A DNA stretch of 64,000 bases from positions 371,219-435,218 of the IMG/VR virus record IMGVR_UViG_3300037313_001869; one strand, written 5' to 3'. The notes beneath the pieces were generated by a model. It made no database searches. It saw only the letters and a list, made by a program, of their open reading frames with translations, and had not been told where the DNA came from. Below, piece by piece: positions 7,318 to 57,169 of this stretch. Each line of letters opens with the position of its first letter. The stretch's first letter is position 1. Position numbers and translations under genes: made by a program. Source of the stretch: a virus. Taxonomy: Duplodnaviria; Caudoviricetes.

Positions 7318-7503
7318 ATGCAAGAAAAAAGCGATGCGATCGAGAGACCGAACCGCAAGATGCGCCGGGCCGTGGCGAAGACCTACCGATCGAACCCAGG
7401 GGCCGAGGTGGTAGGTCTTGAGCTACCGCGCGAGGACATGACCCGCGACACGAAGAGGCGCGAGGGAGGGAAGACGGGCCGGTTCTTCCCCTCGGGCACG
7501 TAA
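7318..7503 (+). CDS. small basic protein
   Basis: MQEKSDAIERPNRKMRRAVAK; ends TAA at 7501-7503. Confidence 0.5.
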   Translation: MQEKSDAIERPNRKMRRAVAKTYRSNPGAEVVGLELPREDMTRDTKRREGGKTGRFFPSGT

Positions 7504-7779
7504 GTCAACGAAGAAATCGCGAAGGGCCTTCTTGGCCTCTGCGAGGGTGGAGAAGCTCTTCTCGTCGAGGGCGTCTGCCCCCGGGCGGGAGAAGGCCCGG
7601 CCCACGAGGGCCACCTTGTAGCCGGTGACCTCGACCCTCTGCTGTCGGGTCGAGCCCACGTAGGAGACGGAGACCTCCCGCTCGATGTAGCCCACGAGGG
7701 CCTCGCCGTGGTGGACGAGGGCCGAGGGGTTGTTGCCGGGGGTGACCTTGCCGAGCTTGCCGAAGGAGAGGAGGGACAT
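7501..7779 (-). CDS. hypothetical protein (proposed end at in-frame TTA)
   Basis: MSLLSFGK...RDFFVD then TTA, the reverse complement of the convergent gene's TAA; GGAAAA-N16-CGTCT upstream. Confidence 0.65.
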
Positions 7780-7851
7780 GGGGGAGAGACGAGCGGGAGG
7801 GGGGCTTTTTTCCAAAAAAGCCTTCCCCAGGGGGGTGTACTGGAGGGGGCG

Positions 7852-8526
7852 ATGCGAAACGCTCTTCCCGTCAAGCCGGCGGAGTGGCCCGAGCGGGCCT
7901 ACAAGCTGGCGTACGTGAGCCCGTCCTGGGGCCCGGAGGGGTCTAGCCGAGACCTCTCGGACCTGATGAAGCTTCCGGTGCCGAGCCTGCTCCTGCCGCC
8001 CGCGGTGGTGCTTCTCTGGGTACCTGGGGGCAAGCTGGAGGAGGGGCTGGATCTGCTCTGGGGGTGGAAGCTCCATTACCGGGGGGTCGCGTTCGTCTGG
8101 GTGAAGACCGACAGCAAGGGGGTACCTCTCGGGGCGCACGGGCCGAGGCCGACGGTCTCTTCGAGGGGGTCAACCGAGCTTGTGCTGGCGGCCGAGACGG
8201 GGCCGGAATACGTGCTCGCGGGATCGACCGAGAAGAGGGGCCGGCCCTTGCCCATCGTGGACGAGACCGTGGGCCAGGTGGTGATGGCCCCTGTAGGTCC
8301 TCGGCCCCCGGAGGTGCGAGCGAGGATCGAGCGCATGTACGGCTCGGCCGTCTCTCGGGTCGAGCTGTTTGCGCCGGGCGAGGTACCGGGGTGGGACGTA
8401 TGGGCCCCCGGGGCCGCGGTGGTGGTCTCGGCTCCTTCTCGGGAGGGGGCGGAAGAGAAGCCTGCCCCCCAGGGCGGGACCGAGAAAGAGGGCTTCGAGC
8501 TGGCGATGGGCCTCGACGATGAGTGA
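7852..8526 (+). CDS. MT-A70-family methyltransferase-like protein, catalytic motif degenerate
   Basis: LLWV, WG..Y...FVWVKT, TELVL, RIERMY..RVELFA..GWDVW; DPPW position reads SPSW. Confidence 0.75.
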   Translation: MRNALPVKPAEWPERAYKLAYVSPSWGPEGSSRDLSDLMKLPVPSLLLPPAVVLLWVPGGKLEEGLDLLWGWKLHYRGVAFVWVKTDSKGVPLGAHGPRPTVSSRGSTELVLAAETGPEYVLAGSTEKRGRPLPIVDETVGQVVMAPVGPRPPEVRARIERMYGSAVSRVELFAPGEVPGWDVWAPGAAVVVSAPSREGAEEKPAPQGGTEKEGFELAMGLDDE

Positions 8527-8848
8527 AGAGACCCCGAAGCCCCCGATGCGAAAGGGCGACCGCTACCGGGTGCGGGCTCCGTACGGGGGCTGGGCCGAGG
8601 GCCAGGTGATGATCGTCTCGGAGGCCCGGGCGTGGGGCGGCTGGCTCGGGGGCTTCCGGGTGCAGCTCATGGGGCAGGAGCAGCGAGGGGACCTCTTCTT
8701 CGAGATCAGCGTCACCTTGAAGACGACCGAGGCCGTGGCGGCGTGGCAGGAGAAATGGGAGCTACTGCCCCGGGCCAAGCGAAAGAGCCCTTCCCACCGG
8801 GCCTACGGGCGAAGGGTCAAGAGCCGCTTCGAGAGGGTGCTCGGGTGA
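8519..8848 (+). CDS. RFxR-tail protein (SH3-like start)
   Basis: ends KSRFERVLG. Confidence 0.65.
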   Translation: MSEETPKPPMRKGDRYRVRAPYGGWAEGQVMIVSEARAWGGWLGGFRVQLMGQEQRGDLFFEISVTLKTTEAVAAWQEKWELLPRAKRKSPSHRAYGRRVKSRFERVLG

Positions 8849-9096
8849 GACTGCCCAGGATGGGCGCTTGCTTTCAGCTCGTCCGGCCCTTCGGGGGCTG
8901 GACGGTGGGCGAGAGGGTCGAGGTCGGCGCCATCAACGACGGCTACGTCTGGCTCTGGACCTACCCCGAGGTTCTCAACCCCTACGGCCACCGGGACTGG
9001 ACCGCCTGCGTGCCCCTGAAGGGGTGGCTGAAATGGGTGAAGCCCTGGAGAGAGGTCCCCCTGCCCACCCGGTACGAGCGGGTGCTCAGCGGGTGA
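8845..9096 (+). CDS. RFxR-tail protein
   Basis: ends PTRYERVLSG; PFGGW segment shared with previous gene (PYGGW). Confidence 0.65.
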   Translation: MRLPRMGACFQLVRPFGGWTVGERVEVGAINDGYVWLWTYPEVLNPYGHRDWTACVPLKGWLKWVKPWREVPLPTRYERVLSG

Positions 9097-9274
9097 GGTC
9101 GGCCAGGCGCTCGCGGGCGTAGGCCGTGGCCTCCTCCAGGGTAGCCCAGGGCGGCGGCTCCTCCTCGCCCGCGAGCAGCCGGTCGAGGGTCTCTTGCCAG
9201 TCGAGCCGGATCTCCTCGTCCGAGGGGCAGTCGCAGGCGAGGGCGTTGCAGTTGGGGGCGTGGGAGGTCTTCAT
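9086..9274 (-). CDS. hypothetical protein
   Basis: 62 aa ORF. Confidence 0.55.
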   Translation of the reverse strand: MKTSHAPNCNALACDCPSDEEIRLDWQETLDRLLAGEEEPPPWATLEEATAYARERLADLTR

Positions 9275-9283
9275 GGCTAGGGC

Positions 9284-14444: not shown

Positions 14445-14858
14445 ATGTGGATCATCATCAAGGCCGAGAGGGTAGGGGAGTCGAACGACTGCGTGGACCG
14501 GGTCTCGGTGGAGTCTGGGGGCCTTGGGCTCTGGCTTGTGCCTGTTGGGGCCCGTTACCGGGTGGGGCGGGCCCCGACGCTCCGTCCGTTTCGGGAGCTT
14601 GACCCTGTGAAGGGGGCTTTGGAGCTTGGGCTCTTGGCTGGTGAGTGGCGGCTTCACTACCAGGTGCAGCGGGAGGGTCGTTACCAGGAGGGTCCGGCCA
14701 TCCACATTGTGGGGGAGGTCATCGAGGGCCGGTCTCTTCTCCGGGTGTCTGGGGCCCACACGGGCTTTTCGGTGGACTTCGAGATGGGGGGCCCGCTGCC
14801 GGTGCTTGGGGAAGCTCGTTCGGGAGTCTCGCGTTACGAAAGGGAGGGCCTTCTCTGA
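14445..14858 (+). CDS. RFxR-tail family protein
   Basis: ends SRYEREGLL. Confidence 0.75.
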   Translation: MWIIIKAERVGESNDCVDRVSVESGGLGLWLVPVGARYRVGRAPTLRPFRELDPVKGALELGLLAGEWRLHYQVQREGRYQEGPAIHIVGEVIEGRSLLRVSGAHTGFSVDFEMGGPLPVLGEARSGVSRYEREGLL

Positions 14859-15244
14859 TGCTCATCCGGGTGGTGGGGCGCGAGAGCATCGAGGTGGACC
14901 TTTCGGGGGAGTCTGGGAGGGTGGTGGTGGGGTGCGACCAGGGCTACCAGGTGACGCGGTACGGGGACCGTGTGCAGTGGGGGTCGATTCACGGGGAAGA
15001 GGTCCGCTACGTCCTTTGGGGGCACGGGGCGGGGGCTGTGTACGTCTACGAGCTGACGGGGAAGGTGGGCTGGGGGGTCCCGTGGCTTCGTATCGAGGGC
15101 GGGTGGGAGCGGTCGACGGGTCAGTACCTCGTGGTCGTGGGGCCTCGGGAAGGGGCGCCGCTGCTTCTCCGGCCTGTTTTGGCGCCTATTCGGGGCGGGG
15201 GAGTGGTGGGGGCGCCGCGGTACGAGAGGGATGACGTTCTATGA
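14858..15244 (+). CDS. RFxR-tail family protein
   Basis: TGATG start; ends PRYERDDVL. Confidence 0.75.
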   Translation: MLIRVVGRESIEVDLSGESGRVVVGCDQGYQVTRYGDRVQWGSIHGEEVRYVLWGHGAGAVYVYELTGKVGWGVPWLRIEGGWERSTGQYLVVVGPREGAPLLLRPVLAPIRGGGVVGAPRYERDDVL

Positions 15245-15642
15245 GGGTCGAGCTTCGGGCGGGTAACGGTCTCTACGGGCTCTGGACGGACCCTGACTTG
15301 GAAGGGGAGCGTTTGGCCCTCTGGGTGCCGGTGGGGCACACGCTGGTCTCGGGCGATGGGGCTGTGCTACCGCCCTCGGGGCACAGGGAGGGGATGCTAC
15401 GGCACTGGCTCTTCCTCTCCGCTTCGGAGGGGCTGAGGCGCTACCAGATTCGGATCGGGGGCGGGGTGGGCCACCCGGTGGTGAGCGACCTTACGCTCTT
15501 TCTCGAAGAGGGCAGGGCGGTCTTGCGGGTCGAGGGTCTCGGGGGCCGGCTCCCTGTGATGGTCTACCTTCGGGAGGTACCTACGGAAGGGGGTAGGGAG
15601 GTGATGGGCCCGGCCCGGTTCGAGAGGGACGAGGTTTTGTGA
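15241..15642 (+). CDS. RFxR-tail family protein
   Basis: ends ARFERDEVL. Confidence 0.75.
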   Translation: MRVELRAGNGLYGLWTDPDLEGERLALWVPVGHTLVSGDGAVLPPSGHREGMLRHWLFLSASEGLRRYQIRIGGGVGHPVVSDLTLFLEEGRAVLRVEGLGGRLPVMVYLREVPTEGGREVMGPARFERDEVL

Positions 15643-16034
15643 TGCGGGTGACCTTGGCCGGGAAGGACAGGCAGGTACTCGTGGACGAGGGGTTGTACCC
15701 TCACTCGTTCGTGGTCGACGATCCGGTGGGCTACCTCGTCTATCGGGAGGGGGCGGGGCCGCCGCCGGTTCCCTCCTATGCCGGGGAGACCCGGAGCTAC
15801 CTCCTTCTCCCGTTCGGGGCTGGCGACCCTTTCGTTTACAAGTTCGAGGTGGCTCCGGGGGTGGCGCTGGCCTTCCTCGACAGGGTCCGTTTCACAGGGG
15901 GGTGGGAAGCTGGGGGCTACATCGTGACGATGAAGGCCCAGGTCGGCCCCTCGTGGCGGTTCCGTTTTGCGTCGGCGCCCCGGCCGATCGCGCGTGTGGC
16001 CGTGGGTCGCTTCGAGAGGGACGAGGTGGTGTAG
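15642..16034 (+). CDS. RFxR-tail family protein
   Basis: ends GRFERDEVV. Confidence 0.75.
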   Translation: MRVTLAGKDRQVLVDEGLYPHSFVVDDPVGYLVYREGAGPPPVPSYAGETRSYLLLPFGAGDPFVYKFEVAPGVALAFLDRVRFTGGWEAGGYIVTMKAQVGPSWRFRFASAPRPIARVAVGRFERDEVV

Positions 16035-16042
16035 AGGACAGG

Positions 16043-16447
16043 GTGCGGATCTCGCTCATCCCGTTCGGCTCGCGGTTCCGGGTGACGTTTCGCCCGTGGA
16101 TCGCGGGAGGGGACGTACTCTTTCGCCTGCCTTCGCACCTGGAGCTTCGGCTCATGGGTTCCCTGGTCTTGGACGAGGTCTCTTCGGGGTCGGGCTTCAG
16201 CGTCTACCGGATCTCCCGGGAAGAGCTGGCGAAGGACCACGTCTACGTGGTGAACGAGCCCTACGTGGCGGGGGATCTCCCGGTCGTCGTGGGGAAGCTC
16301 CAGGGGACGTGGCACCCTGATGGCCTTTGGGTCTTGCACCTTGCGGCGGGCGAGGTCGATATCCAGTGGCACGTCCCGTCCGAGGAATGGACGTGGGAAG
16401 AACGGGGGCCGGCGGCGCCGCGGTTCGATCGTGAGGGCCCGCTGTGA
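16043..16447 (+). CDS. RFxR-tail family protein
   Basis: GTG start VRISL; ends PRFDREGPL. Confidence 0.75.
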   Translation: MRISLIPFGSRFRVTFRPWIAGGDVLFRLPSHLELRLMGSLVLDEVSSGSGFSVYRISREELAKDHVYVVNEPYVAGDLPVVVGKLQGTWHPDGLWVLHLAAGEVDIQWHVPSEEWTWEERGPAAPRFDREGPL

Positions 16448-16878
16448 GGCTTGTCGTGATGCCCGATCTCGGCCGTCCTTGTCCGGGGCAAGAGGTCGAG
16501 GTCATCCAGCAGCCGTGGGCGCACCCGGGCGAGGTCGTCCTCTCGGTGCCTGGGGCCTACGGCCTTTGGTGGACCGACGGGAGGGAGCGGACGGTCTATT
16601 CGCCCTTCGAGGTGTACGGCTCGCACCAATCGTTCTGTCTCTCCCGCTCTGCGATCGTTCGGGGCGAGTCCTACGTGCTCTACTACAAGGCCGGGGACCT
16701 GCTCTTCGGGAACATTCACGGGATGGAGAAGCTGAGCGTCCCTGGCACGGCGCTCTTTCTCAAGATGGAGCACTCCCCCGTGCTTCAGCGGTTCGACATC
16801 CCTTCCGGGCAGTGGACCTTGGAGCCTGGGGGGCGGCCGTCGGAGCTGACGAGGTTCGATCGCGACGAAGTGGTGTAG
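16444..16878 (+). CDS. RFxR-tail family protein
   Basis: ends TRFDRDEVV. Confidence 0.75.
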   Translation: MRLVVMPDLGRPCPGQEVEVIQQPWAHPGEVVLSVPGAYGLWWTDGRERTVYSPFEVYGSHQSFCLSRSAIVRGESYVLYYKAGDLLFGNIHGMEKLSVPGTALFLKMEHSPVLQRFDIPSGQWTLEPGGRPSELTRFDRDEVV

Positions 16879-16886
16879 GGGGCGGG

Positions 16887-17315
16887 GTGCGGATCTCGCT
16901 CTTCCCCTTGGGCACGCCTGGGGACTACTATCGGTTTCGGGTGGCCACCTGCCCCTGGTCGAACCGCGGGTCACTGGTGCTCTGCGTCCCTCGGCCGTTC
17001 CGGCTCTTTCTGGTCGACGATCGGGCGGGGACCGAGAGCGAAGAGACCTACAAGGTCGACGACGGCTACCGCGCGTACCCTCTCTCCCGGCTCGCTTTTC
17101 AGTCGGGGGGCACATACGAGGTCCGGATGGGGGAGAGGGGTCCGACTGCCTTGGTCGCGACGCTTCGTGGCCGGCACCAGCGGACCGAGGGCCTTTGGCT
17201 CTTGCATGTGAGGGGGACGGGGCTCGATGCTCGCTGGCAGATGCCCGACGACGAGTGGACGACCGGGCCTTCGGACGAATCCTTGGCACGCTTCGACCGT
17301 GAGGAGCCCCTGTGA
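16887..17315 (+). CDS. RFxR-tail family protein
   Basis: VRISL start, paralog of 16043; ends ARFDREEPL. Confidence 0.75.
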   Translation: MRISLFPLGTPGDYYRFRVATCPWSNRGSLVLCVPRPFRLFLVDDRAGTESEETYKVDDGYRAYPLSRLAFQSGGTYEVRMGERGPTALVATLRGRHQRTEGLWLLHVRGTGLDARWQMPDDEWTTGPSDESLARFDREEPL

Positions 17316-17692
17316 TCATCGAGGTGACCACAGGCTCTCTCCTTCACGTCCGGCCCGACGTGGTCCCCGGGCGCCTGATCTTCTACTTTCCGAGGGGGGA
17401 GCGGGTCTTCAACCTGGCGAATCAGGGCGAGGTCCTCCCCGTGGCGGGCCTCCGGGACCTCGTGGGCGAGCGCGGCTACGTGCTCGGGGTGGGGGACGAC
17501 ACGGCCCAGATGCTCAACTTCGTCGCTCGCGGGGCCTGGGGCGACACGGTGATCCGGGGCTGGACCGCCTCAGGGGGCTTCGTCGTTTCGGTCGTGACCC
17601 CCGAGCGTTTCTCGACCACCGTGCTTTTGAGCTGGGTACCTCGCCTCTCGGTCATGGGCCAGGACCGTTTCGGCCGGGACGAGGTGGTGTAG
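17312..17692 (+). CDS. RFxR-tail family protein
   Basis: ends DRFGRDEVV. Confidence 0.75.
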   Translation: MIIEVTTGSLLHVRPDVVPGRLIFYFPRGERVFNLANQGEVLPVAGLRDLVGERGYVLGVGDDTAQMLNFVARGAWGDTVIRGWTASGGFVVSVVTPERFSTTVLLSWVPRLSVMGQDRFGRDEVV

Positions 17693-17695
17693 ACC

Positions 17696-18094
17696 ATGCG
17701 CGTGGTCATCGAAACCGACAACGATCGCTGCGTGGTGGTCCACTCGTACGAGGGCCTCGATTCAGGGTCTCTCTCGGTGGTCATCCCCTCGCAGCAGGCG
17801 CTTCTCATCATGCGGGAGCCGGTCTGGCGTGCGGTCGGGCCCTCGTGGGAAGAGGGCAAGGTCGAGGGCTACTGGCTCTCTCTGCCCGAGGGGGTCGACG
17901 AGGCCCGCTACCAGGTCGAGGGCGGTCCGATGCTCCTTGGGCTCGTGCTTCGGAGGCTCCTGCTCTCGGGGGAGGGAGAGCTTCGGATCAACGGGCCTCG
18001 CATCGCCTGGGCCCTGCGCCTTCCTTCGGTACCCATCGGGCCGGGGGAGGTCTTGCCGCTGCGTCCGAGGTTCGACCGGGAAGAGGTGATCTAG
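17696..18094 (+). CDS. RFxR-tail family protein
   Basis: ends PRFDREEVI. Confidence 0.75.
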   Translation: MRVVIETDNDRCVVVHSYEGLDSGSLSVVIPSQQALLIMREPVWRAVGPSWEEGKVEGYWLSLPEGVDEARYQVEGGPMLLGLVLRRLLLSGEGELRINGPRIAWALRLPSVPIGPGEVLPLRPRFDREEVI

Positions 18095-18465
18095 TGCGGG
18101 TCGTGATGTTTCGGGCCATCCGGACCATGCCGTGGCTTGACGAGGAAGCGCTCTCGCTGGTGATCCCGTTTGCGAGCGATCTTCGCCTCGAACAGGGGAC
18201 CTTGATCGACCCGGCGGCCATGGAGAGCGGAATCAAAAAGTTCTGGCTCTACTTCCCCCCGGGCGCAGAAGTTGTGGAATACAAGGTGGTCAACTTGGCT
18301 TCGCGTGTCGTCCGGATTCTCCTCTACCGGGAGGGGGCCTTCAGTGTCGTTCGGATCAGCGAGTCGGAGCATCAGGTGCCGACGGAGCTAATCTTGCCAT
18401 TCGTCCCTTCCGCGCCCGGGGTGATGCGGGGCCCCGCTCGTTTCGACCGGGAAGAGGTGATCTGA
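18094..18465 (+). CDS. RFxR-tail family protein
   Basis: TAGTG coupling; ends ARFDREEVI. Confidence 0.75.
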   Translation: MRVVMFRAIRTMPWLDEEALSLVIPFASDLRLEQGTLIDPAAMESGIKKFWLYFPPGAEVVEYKVVNLASRVVRILLYREGAFSVVRISESEHQVPTELILPFVPSAPGVMRGPARFDREEVI

Positions 18466-18872
18466 TGCACATTGGACTTTTGACCAACAAGGACGAGACG
18501 ACCCGCGTGCTCGTGGGCGAGGCGCATCCGGGGATGGTCATCCTGAGCCTCGTGGCGCGCTACGGGCTCTTTCGGGGGAGCGACACGGTCCCTATGCCCC
18601 TCTACCGGAAGGACGGCATGTTCCATCGCTACCGGCTCGGGCTTCGGCCGGGCGAAACGGACTGCGTGTATCGGGCACACTGGCTCGGCACTCCCTCAGC
18701 CCGCCCCCAAGTCCAGGTGAAGCTTCGCGAGAGGCTCCCTGAGTACGGAGGCATCCCGATCCTCTGTACCCAGATCGAGGACGGGCCGATCTGGGAGCTG
18801 GAGCTGTCGTTTCGGCCGACCGAGACAGACGACTTTCCGTGCCTCCGTTTCGAGAGGGGCGAGGTCATCTGA
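18465..18872 (+). CDS. RFxR-tail family protein
   Basis: ends LRFERGEVI. Confidence 0.75.
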   Translation: MHIGLLTNKDETTRVLVGEAHPGMVILSLVARYGLFRGSDTVPMPLYRKDGMFHRYRLGLRPGETDCVYRAHWLGTPSARPQVQVKLRERLPEYGGIPILCTQIEDGPIWELELSFRPTETDDFPCLRFERGEVI

Positions 18873-19261
18873 TGCTCGTGAGACTCTATACCTCCTACGG
18901 CTGCCCGCGGTTCTTCGAGGGCATCTACCCCCGGCGCTTCGTGGTCGAGACGACCGACCCTTACGAGGTGAGGCGGGACGGGGCGGAGCTGACGCCGTCG
19001 TTCGTGGACCGGGGGGTACGGATCTTCGCGCTCGCGGCCGAGGGGTCGAGCGCGGCAACGTACGACTTCGAGCTTCGGGGCAACAGCGGGCCGATGGGGG
19101 GCCTTCGGGTCCGGGTGATGCCCGCGAGGGGCGGGGTGGGCTACGAGGTCTCTCTGAACTTTCGGGGAGGCCCTACGATGGCCTTCTGGACGGCGGACCA
19201 GCCTATGCCGTGGGCTGGGAACGAGGCCGTGCCTCGGTATGATAGGGGCGAGGTCATCTGA
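18872..19261 (+). CDS. RFxR-tail family protein
   Basis: ends PRYDRGEVI. Confidence 0.75.
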   Translation: MLVRLYTSYGCPRFFEGIYPRRFVVETTDPYEVRRDGAELTPSFVDRGVRIFALAAEGSSAATYDFELRGNSGPMGGLRVRVMPARGGVGYEVSLNFRGGPTMAFWTADQPMPWAGNEAVPRYDRGEVI

Positions 19262-19677
19262 TGCGCCTTCGCATCGACCCCCCTGGCGTGCTTGGAGGCG
19301 AGACGGGCCGGCTCATGGTCGACCTTGCCCTTTGCCCGGGCGAGGTCGTCCTCTACGCCTACCCCACCTACAAGGTCTACCGGGTCTATCGGTTCGTGAA
19401 AGACGAGGTCTTCGCCCCGGGGCCCAAATACGGCCTCCACTGCACCTACTGGCTCGGGTCGGACCCTGCCAAGGAAGACCGAGAGGTGGCCTACGAGGCG
19501 AGGCACCCGTCGGGCCTTCCGTTTCACTTCGCGATCGTACGGGGCGAGGGAGCCGTGAGGGTCCAGGTCTCGGCCAAGGGTCTGCCCTACGTGCTTGACG
19601 CCTCCCTCGACTTCTGGCCGAGGGGGAGCACGGGCGAGGGCGGGCCGCCCCGGTTCGATCGGGACGAGGTCCTATGA
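19261..19677 (+). CDS. RFxR-tail family protein
   Basis: ends PRFDRDEVL. Confidence 0.75.
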   Translation: MRLRIDPPGVLGGETGRLMVDLALCPGEVVLYAYPTYKVYRVYRFVKDEVFAPGPKYGLHCTYWLGSDPAKEDREVAYEARHPSGLPFHFAIVRGEGAVRVQVSAKGLPYVLDASLDFWPRGSTGEGGPPRFDRDEVL

Positions 19678-20084
19678 GGGTGCGCCTCTACAGTGGGGTC
19701 TTTGGCTGGACGGTCGAGATCAACCCTTGGTCGGACGAGGGCCGGCTCGTGCTCACGATGCCCGAGCGGTTTCGGCTGGTGAGGTATGGCCACGACGACA
19801 TCAAGGTGCCCGTGGCCCCGCTCCCAGGGGACGTGGACGCGGTCGGGCACAGCCACTTCGAGCTAGGGGCGAACGAGGGGGAAGAGGGCTTTCGCTACGA
19901 GGCCCAGGACGCAGGGGTCACGGCCGTGTTTCTCCTCTTCAAGGATTTCGGCGTCCTCGGCTCCCGCTATCTCTTCCGGGGCCGGGTCGAGGGGGGCGGG
20001 TTTCTTTGTGACACGGTCCTCCCCTGCCCGCCGAGGCTCGGGGGAGAGGGTGCGCCTCGGTTCGAGCGTCCCGAGGTGCTTTAG
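19674..20084 (+). CDS. RFxR-tail family protein
   Basis: ends PRFERPEVL. Confidence 0.75.
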   Translation: MRVRLYSGVFGWTVEINPWSDEGRLVLTMPERFRLVRYGHDDIKVPVAPLPGDVDAVGHSHFELGANEGEEGFRYEAQDAGVTAVFLLFKDFGVLGSRYLFRGRVEGGGFLCDTVLPCPPRLGGEGAPRFERPEVL

Positions 20085-20698
20085 ACGACTGCGACGCTGA
20101 CCATGGTGGCGTCGGGGTTCGCTCGGCTTCGCTGGGCGACGACCTTGGCTTTGACGGGGCCGAGGTCGTTGCGGACGACCTGCACGATGGCGTCGCGGTC
20201 TGCCCAGGGGCCGGCCTCGAAGGTGATGGTGAGGAGGTTCTTGCCCACCTTCAGATCGTCCGGCCCTACCTTGTAGCCCGCTTTGGCGAGGGCCCCCAGG
20301 AGCTTCTTGCCCAGGTCCTCTAGCCCCTCGGTCTGCTCGACGAAGTAGTGCATGGCCGCCCCGATGGCCATCTCGATGTCCGACATCAGCTCGACGCCCT
20401 TCTGATCCGTCATGGTCCGCTTGATGCCGGAGACCTCCTGGGCGAGGTCCGAGAGCAGGTCCTTTTCGGCGGTCCAGGGAGAAGAGGAAGCGCGGCGATC
20501 GTAATGGTAGGGGGCCATCGTGGTACGGTGGCCAAAAGTGGATTCGGGCTTCTGCTGGTGGGCGAGGACAGCTCGCACGTATTCTTGGGCAAAGATTTCT
20601 CGGTTCTCGGGGGTCGAGGCCGCCCGCATGAGAATCTCGAACTTCTCCTCCAAGGTGAACTCACGACCGGGCGAGGGTTTGTCTTGGTCTTCGCTCAT
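20081..20698 (-). CDS. hypothetical protein (possible second start near 20518, MAPYHYDRRA)
   Basis: open frame with typical codon bias in the C-terminal part. Confidence 0.6.
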   Translation of the reverse strand: MSEDQDKPSPGREFTLEEKFEILMRAASTPENREIFAQEYVRAVLAHQQKPESTFGHRTTMAPYHYDRRASSSPWTAEKDLLSDLAQEVSGIKRTMTDQKGVELMSDIEMAIGAAMHYFVEQTEGLEDLGKKLLGALAKAGYKVGPDDLKVGKNLLTITFEAGPWADRDAIVQVVRNDLGPVKAKVVAQRSRANPDATMVSVAVV

Positions 20699-20729
20699 GG
20701 GCCGAAAACATAACATCGGTGAGGCGTAC

Positions 20730-20936
20730 ATGGCTGCAAAAAGGCGTTCGGAGGTGCCCTTGGACGTGACCGGTCGTGTGCTTCGGATCGGGGACCGGGT
20801 CGAGTCGACGCCGGGGCTCTCTTCCGAGAGGGAGACGGGTGAGGTCGTGGGCGTGAAGGACACGCGGGTCGAGGTCCGCTACGACTCGACGGGCGTGATC
20901 TGGCGTTCGTCGGGGAAGCTCTGGCGGGCGGTGTAG
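20730..20936 (+). CDS. small SH3/KOW-like protein
   Basis: DVTGRVLRIGDRV..GEVVGV..VEVRYD. Confidence 0.6.
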   Translation: MAAKRRSEVPLDVTGRVLRIGDRVESTPGLSSERETGEVVGVKDTRVEVRYDSTGVIWRSSGKLWRAV

Positions 20937-20951
20937 GGGACGGCAGATCCC

Positions 20952-21347
20952 ATGCTCATCGACGTTGTCACTCCGCAGCGGTTCTGGATCTACGCAAACC
21001 GTTTCACGACCACGCTCGTCTTCACCGTGCCCGACGGGGGGAGGGTGACTCACGGGCAGCCCTTCACGGTCCCAGGCGAGGTGGGTCCTTCGTTCGAGGT
21101 CGCGCGCTCCTCGCTCCCGTCCGGAGCGGGGCACCGGATCGCTGTTTCTTGGTCGGCTCGTGGCAAGAGAGAGCGGCTCGCGTTCCGGCTCGTCGTGGCG
21201 GGCGAGGAAACCTGGCTCGACTTGCCCAACAGCGGGGGCGTCCTCTGGGTCCCTGGCTACGGCCGGATTCGCCGTATGAAGCAGGTGGAGCGGTACCAGC
21301 CTACGCCTCCGCCGCCTCCTCGGTTCGATCGGGGCGAGGTGCTCTGA
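20952..21347 (+). CDS. RFxR-tail family protein
   Basis: ends PRFDRGEVL; CGGTGTA upstream. Confidence 0.75.
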   Translation: MLIDVVTPQRFWIYANRFTTTLVFTVPDGGRVTHGQPFTVPGEVGPSFEVARSSLPSGAGHRIAVSWSARGKRERLAFRLVVAGEETWLDLPNSGGVLWVPGYGRIRRMKQVERYQPTPPPPPRFDRGEVL

Positions 21348-21754
21348 TGCGGATCAACCTGAACCCTTCCGAGGGGAAAGAGCCTGTGGTGCGGCCGTGG
21401 GAAGACCTGGGGAAGCTCGTCGTGACAACGGAGGCGCCGGCCGTCATGCAGCCCGTGGACATTCGGCTAAACCCCCTCGTGGGCCAGCCGTATAGCGGGT
21501 GGTTGATCTTTGAGATTCCCCGGCCCGAAAACGGGGTCTTTGGCTACTACATCCTGCCGGCCGAGGACAAGCCCTACCTCTACGCCATCCAAGCGCTGAT
21601 TCGCCAAGCCTTCGATGGTTTTGCGGAGTGGAACTTGCATATCGTCTCCTCGTCGGGGCCGTCCGTGCGGGTGCTCTTGCCCGACCGGGAGTGGCGCAGG
21701 CCCCTGCCTTCCGATGGGCGCCCGGCCCGTTTCGAGAGGTCCGATGTATTGTAA
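21347..21754 (+). CDS. RFxR-tail family protein
   Basis: ends ARFERSDVL. Confidence 0.75.
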   Translation: MRINLNPSEGKEPVVRPWEDLGKLVVTTEAPAVMQPVDIRLNPLVGQPYSGWLIFEIPRPENGVFGYYILPAEDKPYLYAIQALIRQAFDGFAEWNLHIVSSSGPSVRVLLPDREWRRPLPSDGRPARFERSDVL

Positions 21755-21778
21755 ACCTCTTGTCACTGGCGGGTGGGT

Positions 21779-23248
21779 ATGCCCCGCCTCTCGCCGCTCG
21801 CTTACAAGGTTGCCGCTGCCTACCGCCTGATCCGGGCGATGGACGAGAGCTTGTGGGACGGGGCCGTGGCGGCTCTGCAAGACTTCCAGGTCGAGGCCGA
21901 GAAGCTCCGCGACTTCGACATCACGACGCAGGAGGGCATGGAGACCTTGCGGCAAGCTCGGTTCTCGAACAAGAGCGTCAACAAGCTCGTCGGGGGTCTC
22001 GGCAAAGATCAGGGCTTCGTCGAATGGATGAAGGTGGCCCTGCCGAACCACAAGGACTGGGAACGCTCGCTCTACGGTTACATGCGAGCGGTGGCCGAGG
22101 GGGCGAACAAGCTCTTCGAGGCGGAGGGCCTGGGGGACCGGTCGACCGTTCTCCGGCCGCTCGAAACCTACGAGAAGGTCGTCTCCGATCTGGTCTCGAA
22201 GGTCGCCCCGGCCCGCCTCACCTACGACGGCTTCGCGGTCGATAACCCCGACCGTCTGCTCGAACCCACGGTCCGGGCCTTGCTCGGGGGCGTGGACTAC
22301 GTCCTTGCCCTCTTCAAGAAGCGTGGCCTCGAAGAGATGCTCCGCGACGGCCTTCGCGGGGGCATCGGGCTCTACGGCCGTCCTCCGGAGGGCAGTGACG
22401 CTGCCGGGCACTACTTCTCGACCAAGGGTCGTATCCAGCTCTACGCCGTCCACATGATCGGCGCCTCGGGCGGCAAGCTGATGCAGGACTGGATCGCCGA
22501 GGTCTTCCTCCATGAGTTCGGCCACCACGTTCACCTGTCCGTCATGCCCAAGGACGCCATGGAAGCGTGGAACGGGACGTGGGACGAGGTGAAGAGCGAG
22601 AAGAAGAAGCTCGAAGAGACCTTGCAGAGCATCACGGGGCCCGAGCGCATGAGGTACTGGAACCTCCTCGAAGCCGCGGGCTACCAGCCGAACAAGGCTG
22701 CGGCGAAGATGAAGCCGATCGACAAGCTGAAATTCGGCGTCTGGCTCCGCAACCCTCGCATCAACGGGCCCCTCATTACCCCGGCACAGTTCCGGCTCTC
22801 GAAGGAGGGGCAGGAATACTTCTCGTTCTTCCTCGACCCGGAGAAGTACCTTCGCGAGGAGCGCTTCACCACCAAGGAGCAGGACGGCGAAAAGGCGTAT
22901 GAGGACCTCTTCAACCGGGTTCAGCGCCAGCGCTACAGCCGGCTCGGGCTCCTCGACGCGGGCAACGACCCACTCCCGATCGCCATGGCCGAGGAGCTGA
23001 TGAAGGCGGACCCTTCGCTTCAGAAGGCCGTGGATGCCGCCCTCGACAAGCTCCAGCCCGTAACCGAGTACGCGAAGACCAACGAAAAAGAGGACTTCGC
23101 CGAGGCATTCGTGGCGTTCGTGGCCGCGCCGGAGAAGCTCACGCCTTCGGCGAAGTTCCGGATGCAGCGGGCCCTCTCGCTCGCCGGTCTTTACGGCAAA
23201 TCCCTGGGCCGCGTCTCTTCCAAAAAGCCCGACATCGATCCTGCGTGA
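21779..23248 (+). CDS. zincin-like metallopeptidase domain protein with SPLxxKVA leader
   Basis: FLHEFGHHVH (HExxH) and distal TEYAKTNEKEDFAEAF. Confidence 0.8.
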   Translation: MPRLSPLAYKVAAAYRLIRAMDESLWDGAVAALQDFQVEAEKLRDFDITTQEGMETLRQARFSNKSVNKLVGGLGKDQGFVEWMKVALPNHKDWERSLYGYMRAVAEGANKLFEAEGLGDRSTVLRPLETYEKVVSDLVSKVAPARLTYDGFAVDNPDRLLEPTVRALLGGVDYVLALFKKRGLEEMLRDGLRGGIGLYGRPPEGSDAAGHYFSTKGRIQLYAVHMIGASGGKLMQDWIAEVFLHEFGHHVHLSVMPKDAMEAWNGTWDEVKSEKKKLEETLQSITGPERMRYWNLLEAAGYQPNKAAAKMKPIDKLKFGVWLRNPRINGPLITPAQFRLSKEGQEYFSFFLDPEKYLREERFTTKEQDGEKAYEDLFNRVQRQRYSRLGLLDAGNDPLPIAMAEELMKADPSLQKAVDAALDKLQPVTEYAKTNEKEDFAEAFVAFVAAPEKLTPSAKFRMQRALSLAGLYGKSLGRVSSKKPDIDPA

Positions 23249-23301
23249 CCTTCGCCCGGTGTAAAACCGGGCATGAGCGCGATCTCCCGGGCGGCTGAGC
23301 C

Positions 23302-23724
23302 ATGCGGGTGACGGTCCTTCCGTCCCGTCCCGGCCTCCAAACCAAGGTCTCATCGGTCCGGGTCGACCCGACCCTCGACAGGGGTTTGGTCCTGGTCGCT
23401 CCCGAGAGCTACCGGCTGATCGCCGCTCGCTCGTCGGTGGATAGCCACCTCGCCGTGCCTTTCCGCACTGTCAACGCCCTCTCCTACTACGAGCTGGGCT
23501 ACGATGAGGGGGCCGACCGGGCCACCTACAGCCTCTATCACCACGAGACGGTCACGACCCAGACGCGGCTTTCCATCGTGGGCGTGGCCGGCGACAGCGA
23601 GTGGTCACTCTTGATCGAGCCCCCCGAGGCCGCGATCGTGGTGGCTGTGCTGGGTACCGACAAGCCGAAGCTCGGGAGGGTGCGGCTCGAAGCCTCTCGG
23701 TTCGATCGGGAAGGGGTGCTCTGA
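23302..23724 (+). CDS. RFxR-tail family protein
   Basis: ends SRFDREGVL. Confidence 0.75.
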   Translation: MRVTVLPSRPGLQTKVSSVRVDPTLDRGLVLVAPESYRLIAARSSVDSHLAVPFRTVNALSYYELGYDEGADRATYSLYHHETVTTQTRLSIVGVAGDSEWSLLIEPPEAAIVVAVLGTDKPKLGRVRLEASRFDREGVL

Positions 23725-24116
23725 TGCTCATCGACTTTCGGAACCTCGCCACCCCTCGGATCGAGCAGCCCTGGCAGGGCCGGGTCTTGCTTCAGGGGGA
23801 GGAAGGGTGCCAGGGCCTCGTGGTCATGCCTACGACGCTCAACCTCGGCGGGGGCGTCTTCGAGATCGTGCCCCCTGAGCCCAACGAGGGCCTGGCAGAG
23901 ATGCAGTGGGACTACACGTTCCGGCCCACGGCGCAGGCCGCGCCCACGATCCTCATCTCGCTATTTGCCTGGCAGAGGTTCCGCTTCTGTACTCGCTGGG
24001 TCTGGGAAATCCGCTGGGAGATGAACCAGCAGCTCTCGAAAAACTGGTACTATCGCGGGCGCCTGAACGGCCTCACCACACAGCCCTCGCGCTACCTCCG
24101 GGACGAGGTGCTCTAA
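23724..24116 (+). CDS. RFxR-tail family protein
   Basis: ends SRYLRDEVL. Confidence 0.75.
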   Translation: MLIDFRNLATPRIEQPWQGRVLLQGEEGCQGLVVMPTTLNLGGGVFEIVPPEPNEGLAEMQWDYTFRPTAQAAPTILISLFAWQRFRFCTRWVWEIRWEMNQQLSKNWYYRGRLNGLTTQPSRYLRDEVL

Positions 24117-24466
24117 TGCTCCTCGACTTCACCTGCGACCGTCCGAGGCCGCACCCCGATAAGTGCCTGGGCCGGCTCATTCTCCGGTGCGAGGAGGGGG
24201 CCGAGGGCCTTCATTCGGGGGGCATCAATCTGGGCCGTGGGCTCTTCGAGATCCCTTGCCCCGAGTTTGACAAGGGCAAGGGCCGTGGGTCCTGGACCTA
24301 CCGCCTGAAGGCGAAGATCGGCCCGGGCGGGCACCATTTCGTTTCGCTCGTGTGGCATGGGACCTTCTGGCGCGTGTCGTTCACGGCCCAGCACGGGGGC
24401 AGCTCCTACCCCCTTATCAACTTCCACCCGATGCCTTCGCGGTTCGAGAGGGAGGAGATCCTGTGA
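24116..24466 (+). CDS. RFxR-tail family protein
   Basis: TAATG coupling; ends SRFEREEIL. Confidence 0.75.
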   Translation: MLLDFTCDRPRPHPDKCLGRLILRCEEGAEGLHSGGINLGRGLFEIPCPEFDKGKGRGSWTYRLKAKIGPGGHHFVSLVWHGTFWRVSFTAQHGGSSYPLINFHPMPSRFEREEIL

Positions 24467-24912
24467 GGATCGTGATCGACCCAGCCATGATCGTGAAAAA
24501 CCAGTTCGGGCGGGACGAGCACCGGATCGAGCTTCTCGAAGAAGACCTCGGGCAGGTAGCGCTTTACGTTCCTCCGGTCTTCGAGCTTCAGCGGGGAGGG
24601 CTCCCGGTACCCAGCGTCGAGGCCGGGTCGTGGCGTCGCTACGAGCTTGGGGTCTATACGGACGAGGCCCGGGCCACCTACCACCTACGGGGGCCGACCA
24701 TGGGTCCCAGACAGCTCGCTTGGGTTCGGATCAATCTCTTTCGCGAGTCCTACCCGGACGCCCAGGGCGTCGAGGTCCAAGGGCTCGTGGGGACGCTACA
24801 CACGGCCGGCGGGGTTGTGCGGGTCTTCGTGGCCAAGCCGGTCTCGCCCCCGTCGTGGCATCCACGGGCACCCTCGGCAGCGACCCGCTTCGAGAGAGAC
24901 GGGGTGCTCTGA
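24463..24912 (+). CDS. RFxR-tail family protein
   Basis: ends TRFERDGVL. Confidence 0.75.
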   Translation: MRIVIDPAMIVKNQFGRDEHRIELLEEDLGQVALYVPPVFELQRGGLPVPSVEAGSWRRYELGVYTDEARATYHLRGPTMGPRQLAWVRINLFRESYPDAQGVEVQGLVGTLHTAGGVVRVFVAKPVSPPSWHPRAPSAATRFERDGVL

Positions 24913-26181: not shown

Positions 26182-26213
26182 GTCTCGCCTCCCCGGTGTA
26201 AGGGACGCCCACA

Positions 26214-27365: not shown

Positions 27366-27446
27366 CCCTCTCTCTGAAGCCCCGTGAGCCCCGGTCTCTT
27401 TTGCAGAAAAGAGACCGGGGCTTTTTCGTTTGGTGTAGGAAAAACC

Positions 27447-41268: not shown

Positions 41269-41787
41269 ATGGCCCAGGTACGCCTTCTCAAGTTTTCACA
41301 GTCCCCTGCTTCCCCGCAGCGGCATGTCGAGTCGACCGATTCGGTCCGTATCGCGTCCTTGGGCCTGGGGGTCAACGCCCCGAGTACCATCGGGCTCATC
41401 GCGTTTACGGACGCAACCCCGACCGCAGCCGGCCAGCTCGGCATGGACACAACAACCGGAAGACCCCGCTGCTACATCAGCGGGGCCTCTCGGTCCCTCG
41501 CCTACCAAGGCGAGAGCAACATTGACCTCTTCCTCTCGTCGGACCCCACGACGCCCGGGCACGCCTACGCCCAGGTTGTCACCTCGGGCAAGGTCACCCG
41601 GGAGACGTGGACGGCGACCTCGGGTGGGGCGCTCATCAAGAGCGTCGACTACACCTACACTAGCAACAAAGTACAGACGATCGTGACCAAGGTGTTCGCT
41701 TCGGACGGCACGACCATCACGGGCCAGACGACCATCACCTACTCCTACGGAGCGACCGTCTCCTACACGCTCGTGAGGGACGTTTTA
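41269..41787 (+). CDS. virion-like protein (proposed end at in-frame TTA)
   Basis: ...SYTLVRDV then TTA overlapping the next ATG (TTATG). Confidence 0.7.
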
Positions 41788-42740
41788 TGCCGGGCTCCAT
41801 CGCGCTTTCTTCCTTCCCCATCACCCGCGATCCCAACGCGCAGGCGATCCACGCGAACTCCACGGTCACGGCGTCGGGCTCTTCGATCGTCACCGGCTAC
41901 GGCTCTTCCGAGGTCACCCTGTTCGTCAACGTCAAGGCCGCGCCTACGGGCACGACCCCGACGCTCACGTACACGCTTCAGGAGGTCGACCCAGGGGATA
42001 CGACGACCGTGATCGGTACCACCGTGTCGAGCACGACGATCTCGGCCTTGGGCATCCAGAAAGTCACGCTGCCCTGTCTCTTTGGCGGGGCCATCAAGGT
42101 CTCCTGGACCGTCACCGGCACGACCCCGAGTTTCACGCAGGTTTACGCCACCCTCATCAACAAGTCTGGCACGATCAAGATCACCGACGCGGCAGGCACG
42201 GCGTTCGGCACGAGCACCAACCCCATCCAGGTCTCGGAGTTCGAGAAGGCCACCTACAGCGCCAGCATCCTGGCGCTCGCCCCGGCCACGACCCCGACGG
42301 ATGTTTTCACAATCACGGGGTCGGCCTCGAAGGTCCTGCGTGTCACCTACCTGGAAGTCTTCGGCATCCAGACGACCGCGGGACATCCTGTCATCCAGCT
42401 CGTCAAGCGCAGCACGGCCAACACGGGCGGCACGTCCGCCGCCGTTACGGCCGTGCCCTATGACTCCTCCGATGCAGCGGCGACGGGAACCGTGCTCTCG
42501 TACACGGCCAACCCCACCGCCCTTGGAACATCGGTGGGTGTCGTTCGTGCTGGCCGCATTTTCGTCCCCACCTCCGCAACCGCTTCTGATCAGCACGGCG
42601 TTCGGTGGGACTTTGGTACAAGGGACAACGGAAAAGCTGTTGTTCTCCGAGGCACTACGCAGGTCCTCGCGGTCAACCTCAACTCTGTGACCCTGACGGG
42701 TGGGTCGCTGTCCATCAACGTCGAATGGACGGAAGAGTGA
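41787..42740 (+). CDS. T-rich virion structural-like protein
   Basis: 317 aa, beta-rich, ends INVEWTEE. Confidence 0.8.
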   Translation: MPGSIALSSFPITRDPNAQAIHANSTVTASGSSIVTGYGSSEVTLFVNVKAAPTGTTPTLTYTLQEVDPGDTTTVIGTTVSSTTISALGIQKVTLPCLFGGAIKVSWTVTGTTPSFTQVYATLINKSGTIKITDAAGTAFGTSTNPIQVSEFEKATYSASILALAPATTPTDVFTITGSASKVLRVTYLEVFGIQTTAGHPVIQLVKRSTANTGGTSAAVTAVPYDSSDAAATGTVLSYTANPTALGTSVGVVRAGRIFVPTSATASDQHGVRWDFGTRDNGKAVVLRGTTQVLAVNLNSVTLTGGSLSINVEWTEE

Positions 42741-48278: not shown

Positions 48279-48539
48279 TAAGGGCTCGGTCGGCATTTCT
48301 ACATCAAAGGGCTGGCACGTCTCGACCCGGCTGACCCCGCGGACCTTGGAAAGGGCCTTGACCTGCTCCTCGGCGACGTACCCGTAGATGCGAAGGTCCC
48401 CCCGGAACTTCCCTCCGGTATAGACCCACCAGCGGGAGGTATCGCGAAGCCCGGCCGCTTGAAGAACGGGCTCCAGGGCCCGCCTCGCTTCGGTATCAAG
48501 CGTCTTCTTGGGGTACACGCAGACGTACACGTCAGCCAT
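48279..48539 (-). CDS. small ferredoxin-like protein (proposed end at in-frame TTA)
   Basis: MADVYVCVYP..LSKVRGVSRVE..MPTEP then TTA, followed by a hairpin and the lipoprotein start. Confidence 0.65.
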
Positions 48540-52606: not shown

Positions 52607-53089
52607 TAACTCCCTAGACCGGCGGGGGTCGCGGAACTGACGGAAATCCTCGGGGCAATCGTCTTCCCGGAACGCGAAGAAGGCCATGCCTCCGAGGCTC
52701 GCGGCGTCGGCGAGGTAGGGGCCCGAGAGCGGGTGCCTTGCCAGGGCTTGCTCGTCCGGAGGGAGCCTCGAAAGGTCGGCGATCATGGTCTCGCCCGTGG
52801 GGGTGACGAAAATCACGTCCTGTCCTTCGGTCTGGACGCCGGGCAAGATGTGGCCGAACCGGTGGGCGTAGTCGACGAAGAGCCCGCCCGGGCCGAAGAG
52901 CTTTTCGTACTTCTGTCCCGGCCTCACTGTGTCCTCGACCCAGGCGCCGAGGTCGGTCGCGTGCAGGCGGAAGGTCGAGCCGTCAGAGCACTCGATCCGG
53001 CAGATGCACTCGTTGGCTTCGGCTCTCTCGACGGCGGTAACGGTCTTGCCCACAAGACGGGCGCGAATGGCTTCGAGGTCGACAGGCAT
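52607..53089 (-). CDS. hypothetical protein (proposed end at in-frame TTA)
   Basis: ..RDPRRSRE then TTA (52607-52609), 2 nt before the next ATG at 52604. Confidence 0.65.
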
Positions 53090-55598: not shown

Positions 55599-55922
55599 AT
55601 GCTCGTCGACCTCTCTTCCAGTCGCCCCCGACTCTCCTCCGTTTTCCCTCGCACCCTCACCCTCAAGCTCTCTAGCGAGGGCGTGGGGGTGGGCGTCTTC
55701 CCCTACGGCAGCCAGACCTCGATCAAGCCGGTCGATGGCTGCTACGAAGTGCCCCTGCCCCTGGCGGGCGAGGCGTCGCACTATCGGGTCGTGGCCCGGG
55801 GGGAGATGCGAGGCGAAGCGGCGGCCATCGTGTGGGACCTCCTGGTCCGCGGCGAACGCACCTACGCCGAGGCCGCCTTCTTCACCTACGCCCCCACGGC
55901 CTCCTTCGAGGTCATCGTCTGA
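55599..55922 (+). CDS. array-family-like protein lacking the RFxR tail
   Basis: MLVDLS..FPRTLTL start. Confidence 0.65.
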   Translation: MLVDLSSSRPRLSSVFPRTLTLKLSSEGVGVGVFPYGSQTSIKPVDGCYEVPLPLAGEASHYRVVARGEMRGEAAAIVWDLLVRGERTYAEAAFFTYAPTASFEVIV

Positions 55923-55936
55923 AAGGACCTGCTGCC

Positions 55937-56257
55937 ATGCTCATCGACACCACCTCCGAATCGCGCCTCACCCTCCTCCCCCACCGCTACGCGGGTCAGC
56001 TCGTCGTCAGGACCCCGCAGGCCCCCGGCTTCGGCGTCTTCTGCGTGCCCGGCGAGGGCGAGGTCAAGAACATCGAGCACGGCATCTTCGTGGCGTCTCT
56101 GCCCAAGGAGGGCGAGCAGGTCTACACGATCCGCTTTCCCGGCGGGACCAATCTTGCGCGGATCATCGAGCTGATCGCCGTCCGCATGGGCCAGGGCTGG
56201 ATGGTCACCCTCACCACCCGGGACGCCGCGTTCGACGTGTACGTGGCCGAGGTGTGA
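55937..56257 (+). CDS. array-family-like protein lacking the RFxR tail
   Basis: MLIDTT..YAGQLVV start. Confidence 0.65.
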   Translation: MLIDTTSESRLTLLPHRYAGQLVVRTPQAPGFGVFCVPGEGEVKNIEHGIFVASLPKEGEQVYTIRFPGGTNLARIIELIAVRMGQGWMVTLTTRDAAFDVYVAEV

Positions 56258-56914
56258 TCAGTCGTCCTCGACCGGGACCGGGCCCTTGCCGAGGGTGATC
56301 GTCACCCCCTCGTCGAGGGCCTCTTTCACCTTCAGGTACAGCTTGTAGAGCTTCTTGCGCCTGGCGTAGGGAACGATCGTTCCCCGCGGCAGATGGGCGA
56401 GCCGGACGGCGCACTCGAAGACCGTCATCTTCTCGATATCGTACGCCGCGACCAGCTCCGCGGCTTTAGCCTCGTCGCTTCGGTAGGCGGCGATCTGCTC
56501 TTTGGCCCGGTTGCAGTCAACCGACACCTGAAGGGCCGGGCCAGCGAGGAACGGGGCCATGGTGGGCGGAGGCTCGTTGCCTATGACGGGCCCGCCTGAG
56601 GCTCCACAGCTCTGGCAGATGTAGAAGTCGTCCTTACCAACGGGCCCGCCGTCGACCTCTTCGGTCGTCCAAAGATGCCCCCGGGCCGGGGGCAGAAGAC
56701 CGAGGGCCCTCTCGATCTCTTCTTTGGCCCGGGCCCGGGAAGAGGCGTAGCGGTAGCCGTCACCCCCACGATCGACGTTCACCCGGTCCGGATCAGGGGC
56801 GAGCGTCCAACGCCACTCCGGGAAGCTCCTCTCGTAGACGAGTTCGAGGTTGGCGAGGACCCTGCCACTTGCGTTGAAAAGGGCGCTCTCTTCTTCCTTG
56901 TCGACCCAGGGCAT
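56258..56914 (-). CDS. hypothetical protein with CQSC motif
   Basis: MPWVDKEEE start with its own CGGTGTA. Confidence 0.7.
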   Translation of the reverse strand: MPWVDKEEESALFNASGRVLANLELVYERSFPEWRWTLAPDPDRVNVDRGGDGYRYASSRARAKEEIERALGLLPPARGHLWTTEEVDGGPVGKDDFYICQSCGASGGPVIGNEPPPTMAPFLAGPALQVSVDCNRAKEQIAAYRSDEAKAAELVAAYDIEKMTVFECAVRLAHLPRGTIVPYARRKKLYKLYLKVKEALDEGVTITLGKGPVPVEDD

Positions 56915-56922
56915 GATTCCCC

Positions 56923-56940
56923 TCGTACACCGGTGTACGA
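56923..56940. promoter_or_regulatory. 18-bp perfect palindrome carrying CGGTGTA on both strands
   Basis: TCGTACACCGGTGTACGA between divergent ATGs at 56914 and 56948. Confidence 0.7.
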
Positions 56941-56947
56941 TCTTCCC

Positions 56948-57169
56948 ATGAGCGAAACCATCGCAGGGAAGTACGTCGTTCGACTCTTCGACATGTTCGA
57001 CGGCTGGATCGACATCACCGGCCCCCTCTCGAAAGAAGAGGCGGACGCTGTCTGGCGCGAGAAGACCGGCAATGGCACGCACCACACCAGCTTCTCGGAC
57101 GGCGACTACTACGCCGTCTATTCCGCCGACACGAGGATGATCTTCACCCCCGAGTTTCTCGGCCGCTAA
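56948..57169 (+). CDS. hypothetical protein
   Basis: MSETIAGKYVVRLFDMFDGWID..; ends TAA at 57167-57169. Confidence 0.7.
   Translation: MSETIAGKYVVRLFDMFDGWIDITGPLSKEEADAVWREKTGNGTHHTSFSDGDYYAVYSADTRMIFTPEFLGR

Follow-up and report, generated by a model that had tools for sequence, protein, structure and literature searches.

Does the codon TTA (UUA in the messenger) serve as a stop codon in this bacteriophage, and how might it be read? The window analysed here is a stretch of 64,000 nucleotides (nt), bases 371,219-435,218 and hence the final 64 kb, of one contig of 435,218 bp. This contig, an IMG/VR record with direct terminal repeats and a CheckV completeness of 100%, is a phage genome (G000) of the jumbo size class (435 kb), with a guanine-plus-cytosine (GC) content of 64.8%. 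A megablast search of the genome against GenBank phages gave no match. A first-pass annotation, made from the letters of the window alone, had reported eight in-frame TTA codons placed at gene ends and had suggested that UUA terminates translation here. This suggestion was supported by five independent lines of evidence, namely the stop positions of orthologues, a 40-member family of C-terminal tails, the tag of the transfer-messenger RNA (tmRNA), the codon content of 120,942 conserved alignment columns and the N-termini of 58 homologues. It is very likely that TTA marks real protein ends in this genome. With good, if slightly lower, confidence, the comparisons of sequence also indicate that ribosomes terminate at UUA in vivo, and UUA is with the same good confidence taken to join UGA, UAG and UAA as a fourth stop codon and to be a leucine (Leu) codon no longer.

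A home-made gene caller, self-trained on codon usage, was run with and without TTA as a stop. All eight TTA codons of the window were located in the positions and frames first reported, and with TTA as a stop the caller returned exactly these eight TTA-ended genes and no others (Table 1). At the site 41785(+), the coding score was 0.81 before the TTA and -1.30 after it, and the next standard stop was 74 codons away. The read-through frame at 35124(-) was rich in arginine, serine and proline and ran for 52 codons without a standard stop. Past the TTA at 52607(-), which does lie immediately before the next start codon as first described, the coding score was -0.87. The separation of a small protein from a lipoprotein at 48279(-) also held: a lipoprotein gene that reaches to 47790 starts in frame 30 nt past the TTA, with its ATG at 48248-48246, and its product begins with MPGFYRIAVLALALVSVGC; this signal peptide contains a lipobox cysteine and is necessarily N-terminal. 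At 57167, the coding signals of both strands finished at the shared triplet (0.75 and 0.72). Read-through on the minus strand would here give a product of 681 amino acids (aa) lying antisense across the convergent gene, the fusion which a TTA stop had been proposed to remove. No homologue was found in a search with the 378-aa protein ending at this site, which therefore rests on coding statistics and on the shared TAA. An exact-protein look-up of the product of the convergent gene (56675-57166) found no record.

Table 1. Coordinates of the TTA sites in the window and of other features discussed in the text
Feature	Coordinates	Strand	Remarks
TTA	7501-7503	-	ends gene 7504-7779(-), ~92 aa; coding score 0.56 before, -0.47 after; triplet on the plus strand is the TAA stop of convergent gene 6958-7503(+), gap -3
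TTA	31712-31714	+	directly after C-terminal tail RFDREGPL of gene 31097-31711(+); triplet also the TAA stop of convergent gene 31712-32836(-)
TTA	35124-35126	-	ends small gene 35127-35372(-), 82 aa; coding score 0.55 before, -0.78 after
TTA	39744-39746	+	near end of gene 39240-39743(+); TAG two codons on, 39753-39755
TTA	41785-41787	+	ends gene 41269-41784(+); TTATG, one-base overlap with gene 41787-42740(+)
TTA	48279-48281	-	ends small gene 48282-48539(-)
TTA	52607-52609	-	ends gene 52610-53089(-), 160 aa; 2 nt to next ATG at 52604
TTA	57167-57169	-	ends gene 57170-58303(-), 378 aa; triplet is the TAA stop of convergent gene 56675-57169(+)
Tail-family small-gene array	14445-31714	+	internal reference for the stop expected at 31712
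tmRNA	genome 269,912-270,439 (L014:9912-10439)	-	Rfam RF00023
Tandem DUF4419 genes	genome 327822-330101 (L017:7822-10101)	+	50% identical, same frame, TTA plus 42 nt between them
Transfer RNA (tRNA), amber anticodon CUA	genome 331929-332021 (L017:11929-12021)	-	ARAGORN label 'Pyl'

Two syntenic jumbo phages were fetched whole as relatives, G001 (363 kb, 53% GC) and G002 (407 kb, 57.9% GC). The comparison also covered 66 further loci of relatives at 44-65% GC, which included 48 metagenome loci, 16 IMG/VR loci and one contig of a metagenome-assembled genome (MAG). Orthologues in the two syntenic relatives and in about 55 further relatives carried TGA, TAG or TAA at the position of the TTA. When TTA positions were set against homologue C-termini in 57 gene-relative pairs, a check that the first-pass annotation had proposed, the orthologue stop coincided with the TTA (offset 0) in 33% of pairs, was no more than 3 codons away in 61% and no more than 10 codons away in 88%. 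For genes of G000 ending in TGA the same offsets gave 40%, 73% and 89%, so that the two distributions match. The TTA aligned exactly with TGA, TAA or TAG in g180106, g199999, g216101, g63102, g83823, g250988, g213226 and g266740 (for the first five, with stops permitted inside the alignments), and was 1-2 codons from the orthologue stop in g209487, g231472, g117525 and g214534. For g250988 (291 aa), the alignment reached the last residue and TGA stood at the TTA position in both G001 and G002. In G000 and both relatives, the RecA-like gene finished with an acidic tail, and the codon after it was TTA, TAG or TGA. About 40 further metagenome orthologues of g117525 all stopped at the position of the TTA. 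Some alignments obtained with tblastn with composition statistics off seemed to pass several TTAs; these crossed the relatives' own stop codons as well, often exactly at the TTA, and were rejected as counter-examples.

The genome also provides a comparison within itself. About 40 of its genes end in a tail of the form R[FY][DE]R[DE]x[PV][LIV] directly before the stop, and one of them has TTA as that stop. This is the gene ending at 31712, in which the TTA follows RFDREGPL; an identical tail followed by TGA was present at 16445-16447 of the window, in agreement with the sibling first pointed out. The tail-bearing proteins are small and otherwise dissimilar, often with a proline-rich linker ahead of the tail, and about 20 of the genes are found outside the array in the window. 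The tail resembles a shared tag for docking, sorting or packaging.

The use of TTA inside genes was assessed in six-frame alignments of G000 with the proteins of G001 and G002. Among the 120,942 conserved columns obtained, TTA was present in 3, all of them in the last 3-19 columns of an alignment. In the same columns CTA was present 79 times, TTG 440 times, ATA 8 times and AGA 47 times; mid-gene TTG and CTA, as first noticed in the window, do occur inside conserved blocks. The expected number of internal TTA codons by a simple product rule (TTG x CTA/CTG) was about 12, compared with the 3 observed. The many TTA codons inside conserved domains that would have spoken against a stop were therefore not seen, and in frame TTA occurs only at protein ends.

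Every TTA flanked by coding sequence on both sides in G000 resolved to a gene boundary. The TTA at genome position 328911 parts two full-length tandem DUF4419 paralogues, and at 59164 the TTA closes the gene of an AAA ATPase, with the stops of the orthologues at the same place. The TTA at 10201 lies two codons upstream of the methionine of a DUF6094 methyltransferase-helicase. Alignments with 58 DUF6094 homologues began at that methionine (query residue 270) or later, mostly with the homologue's own residue 1, and none extended upstream. An apparent counter-example, a Pfam match to DUF6094 across this TTA, was removed by these 58 N-termini. The TTAs at 49525, 133543 and 272170 are followed at a distance of 0-66 nt by an ATG; a Shine-Dalgarno motif accompanies two of these, and the one at 133543 is clear. 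A protein in a public collection, P0001, is a 1539-aa read-through fusion of g9400 and the methyltransferase-helicase, an annotation error that arose from reading past the TTA stop.

Tags of tmRNA end in ..LAA at a free C-terminus, which is recognised by Clp proteases. The tmRNA of G000 was a full-length match to the Rfam model, with 78.8 bits against a gathering score of 47. It is 528 nt long, has two large insertions relative to the model and was missed by ARAGORN. Read from the conserved resume position, its tag is ANDNFAASPALAA, ending in ALAA, followed by TTA; the next standard stop in this frame is 7 codons past the TTA. The tag shows the '..LAA plus stop' feature only if TTA is a stop. 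In G002, the tag is ANDNSTAFTAKAA, followed by TGA TAG. The evidence from this tag, like that from orthologues, paralogue tails and homologue N-termini, is independent of the home-made gene caller.

When the genes of the whole genome were called again with TTA added to the stop set, as first proposed, coding density rose from 87.1% to 90.6%, the gene count rose from 591 to 636 and the summed coding score increased by 4582. The gene ends were then 71 TTA, 405 TGA, 90 TAG and 70 TAA; TTA thus ended about 11% of genes (~71 of ~636) and was as frequent as TAA. When 19 other sense codons were used as a stop, density was lower for all but AGA (87.1% to 87.2%). Dropping TAG from the stop set lowered the score by 4669 units, which puts the value of TTA close to that of TAG. 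Genes ending in TTA were present in every 50-kb bin of the genome, and included core genes (RecA-like, ClpX-like, and proteins of 1100-1280 aa). In a coding-drop test, in which an in-frame codon following 60 strongly coding codons without a standard stop is scored by the share of cases then turning non-coding, the share was 83% after TGA, 77% after TAG and 76% after TTA (n=45). It was 42-54% for the rare codons AGA, ATA, CCA and CTA, 14-25% for ordinary sense codons, and 19-24% for GCT, CTT and GAA, which have a background bias like that of TTA.

The surroundings of TTA resembled gene junctions (TTATG, TTAATG, TTA-ccATG, or TTA then GGAGG and ATG). A back-up stop within 10 codons downstream was present at 20% of TTA ends compared with 25% of TGA ends, and the TTA stops showed no sign of leakiness. 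In 16 of the 53 convergent junctions (30%), both genes ended on a single triplet, read as TTA on one strand and as TAA on the other. Such a shared stop for both genes of a pair is impossible under the standard code.

Two other readings were rejected. A +1 shift onto TAA or TAG is ruled out, as the base after TTA was A in only 4% and C or T in 55%. Decay through stop loss was rejected as well, as the other one-step neighbours of stop codons (TCA, TGG, CAA, TTG) behaved as sense codons.

In G001, TTA was an ordinary sense codon in the coding-drop test (22%), and treating it as a stop wrecked the gene calls. In G002, TTA had a frequency of 0.19 per 1000 codons, yet it aligned with Leu codons inside conserved blocks. 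In the 66 further loci, intragenic TTA aligned to Leu, isoleucine or valine, or TTA was absent, and TTA in place of an orthologue stop was found in none of them. One isolated stop-like TTA was seen in locus L069. So far, the trait appears to be unique to G000, with all examined relatives apparently on the standard code. A distant relative, L110 (JBBAQX010000001.1), is a 205-kb contig binned into the MAG of an actinobacterial Lysinibacter sp., with an orthologue of g117525 that is 47% identical. This contig is, by its sequence, probably a related jumbo phage, and gives a weak hint to the host range of the group.

The tRNA complement of G000 differs from that of the two syntenic relatives. ARAGORN detected 44 tRNA genes in G000, 43 of them clustered at 266-300 kb, and the anticodons for Leu were CAA, GAG and CAG only. 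G001 and G002 each encode tRNA-Leu(UAA) and tRNA-Leu(UAG), and G000 encodes neither. No tRNA(UAA) was found in G000 by ARAGORN at the relaxed thresholds -ps95, -ps90 and -ps85, and no remnant by blastn. The loss of tRNA-Leu(UAA) that had been suspected is thus established for the phage genome. The tRNA with the amber anticodon CUA (Table 1) is not part of the tRNA cluster; a class II tRNA of 93 nt, it has a long variable arm and an encoded CCA. TAG is still a stop in about 90 genes of G000 despite this tRNA, and G002 also has CUA tRNAs (35459-35532 and 35791-35867). Among the ARAGORN predictions for G002 were tRNA-like genes with 4- or 2-base anticodons (ctgg, ga, ctca) at 67947-68020, 71582-71653 and 347126-347200.

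Several points weigh against UUA as a stop codon. G000 is a single metagenome-assembled genome, and the trait was observed in none of the examined relatives. The site 39744(+) is uninformative because a TAG follows two codons downstream, and it cannot separate a stop from a Leu reading. The boundaries at 49525 and 133543 rest solely on a downstream ATG, with the Shine-Dalgarno motif in the latter case. No gene for a release factor, Pth or an ArfB-type factor that could act as the UUA reader was recognised in G000; searches of the genome for RF-1, PCRF, prfB, eRF1_2 and Pth gave no match. Furthermore, an ordinary tRNA-Leu(UAA) of the host would read through TTA unless it was removed or outcompeted.

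The last two points bear on how termination might occur. Reading of UUA by a release factor is given about even chances and is favoured over stalling and rescue. The alternative, which is possible but doubtful, is that UUA is an unassigned 'hungry' codon which no tRNA in the infected cell reads, tRNA-Leu(UAA) being either missing from the host or destroyed by the phage. Ribosomes would then stall, and the peptide would be freed by an ArfB-type factor, by peptidyl-tRNA drop-off or by slow near-cognate action of RF2. This is in line with the lack of both tRNA-Leu(UAA) and a release factor in G000, and with the near disappearance of TTA in relatives at 58-65% GC before any use as a stop, a state prone to unassignment. 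Against it, a codon at which ribosomes merely stall would not be expected to be as frequent as TAA, with no excess of back-up stops, or to end core genes. A stall at the end of the tmRNA tag, in the rescue system's own message, would be self-defeating, and rescue of the tmRNA type would mark all of these proteins for degradation. For the first four of these reasons (frequency, lack of nearby back-up stops, core genes and tmRNA tag), a release factor is favoured as the reader.

Since no release factor was recognised in G000, UUA is presumably read by a factor that the host encodes. It might be a class-I release factor of the RF2 type which reads the second codon base loosely, with organellar RF2 as the precedent. 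The change could have occurred by codon capture, in which rising GC content would first have cleared TTA from coding sequence, as is illustrated by the low frequency of TTA already reached in the 58%-GC relative. The phage tRNA-Leu(UAA) would then have been lost, and UUA would finally have come to mean stop. The relatives, in which TTA is common, nearly absent or absent, would make this group a clean test case for codon capture. The UUA reader to which the finding points would be a variant of the host RF2 or else a factor of the phage.

It was also considered, at a low level of probability, that the phage imposes UUA as a stop on the infected cell, or that the host itself runs a code with four stops. 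In the former case, an unrecognised phage factor might remove the host tRNA-Leu(UAA) or redirect the release factor during infection. Host messages containing UUA would be truncated, amounting to a codon-based host shut-off, and the phage genes, which have no internal UUA, would be unharmed, with UUA serving them as an ordinary stop. The latter case would make the host the first free-living organism with a sense-to-stop reassignment.

It is very improbable that the TTAs are assembly, base-calling or record errors for true TAA or TGA codons, although there is only one assembly and the trait is in no relative. Such errors would have to strike the middle base of 71 stops and of the tmRNA tag stop, without a common sequence context, and would also have to erase every internal TTA and delete a tRNA gene. 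At the 16 convergent junctions with a shared triplet, the gene on the other strand uses the complementary TAA as its actual stop. A correction of TTA to TGA would destroy the stop of the partner, and the triplet cannot be TAA on both strands, so that error is unlikely there. Least credible of all is that TTA still encodes Leu as a regulatory rare codon near 3' ends (bldA-like dependence on a scarce tRNA, programmed read-through or bypassing, and stops further downstream). Such a role might be suggested by Streptomyces and its phages, in which regulation through UUA and candidate bypassing are known (PMC10732093, PMC4255298). Against it, read-through would add up to 1271 residues of sequence resembling non-coding sequence, in 16 cases antisense through a neighbour. 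The stops of orthologues fall at the TTA, 58 conserved N-termini and the signal peptide of a lipoprotein start just past a TTA, and no TTA aligns to Leu in conserved blocks of G000, unlike in all relatives.

With UUA as the probable fourth stop codon, about 11% of the genes of G000 are fused or made too long by standard gene calling, and about 45 genes are missed. In known systems, UUA is a stop in NCBI translation table 23, in the mitochondria of Thraustochytrium and other labyrinthuleans, and in the plastids of peDinoflagellates, and UUA and UUG are stops in mitochondria of Marsupiomonadales and Pseudoscourfieldia; termination at UUA in organelles is accompanied by specific changes in RF2, at one and the same position beside SPF in the mitochondria of labyrinthuleans and the plastids of peDinoflagellates, or in mtRF1a (PMC12574857, PMC6821328). 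G000 resembles these organelles in the change of UUA from Leu to stop, in the lack of UUA inside genes, in the orthologous stop positions, in the lack of an encoded tRNA(UAA) and in a translation system of the bacterial type. The organelle codes belong to tiny genomes served by nucleus-encoded RF2 or mtRF1a with identifiable changes, whereas G000 is a 435-kb virus of bacteria without a release factor of its own, whose relatives keep the standard code. In the literature searched, sense-to-stop reassignment was found only in mitochondria and plastids; a UUA stop in G000 would extend this type of change to viruses and to bacterial cytoplasmic translation.

Phages with altered codes, including Lak, crAss-like and other phages, recode stop to sense, with TAG read as glutamine or TGA as tryptophan (10.1101/2021.08.26.457843, PMC9523058), and the literature searched contained phage code changes in this direction only. 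G000 is like the recoded phages in having a phage-specific departure from the code, a large genome, many tRNAs and genes misannotated by standard callers. It differs in the opposite direction of the change, from sense to stop, for which neither a suppressor tRNA nor a release factor of the phage offers an explanation. In G000, TAG and TGA still act as stops: when in-frame TAG or TGA was allowed as an amino acid by dropping either from the stop set, the gene calls collapsed.

In Streptomyces, UUA is a rare codon decoded by the bldA tRNA, and candidate bypassing of UUA has been described in its phages (PMC10732093, PMC4255298). As in G000, UUA is rare there at high GC content, and expression hinges on the availability of one tRNA. 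The bldA system is unlike G000 in that UUA is decoded as Leu within genes; in G000, no internal TTA aligned to Leu, and UUA was found only at ends corresponding to orthologous stops. Unassigned codons were reportedly described in very high-GC bacteria, in Micrococcus luteus, by Kano, Ohama and Osawa in the early 1990s. The likeness to G000 is that GC pressure removes an A/U-rich codon along with its tRNA. An unassigned codon is simply avoided, whereas in G000 TTA is in active use, at 11% of gene ends.

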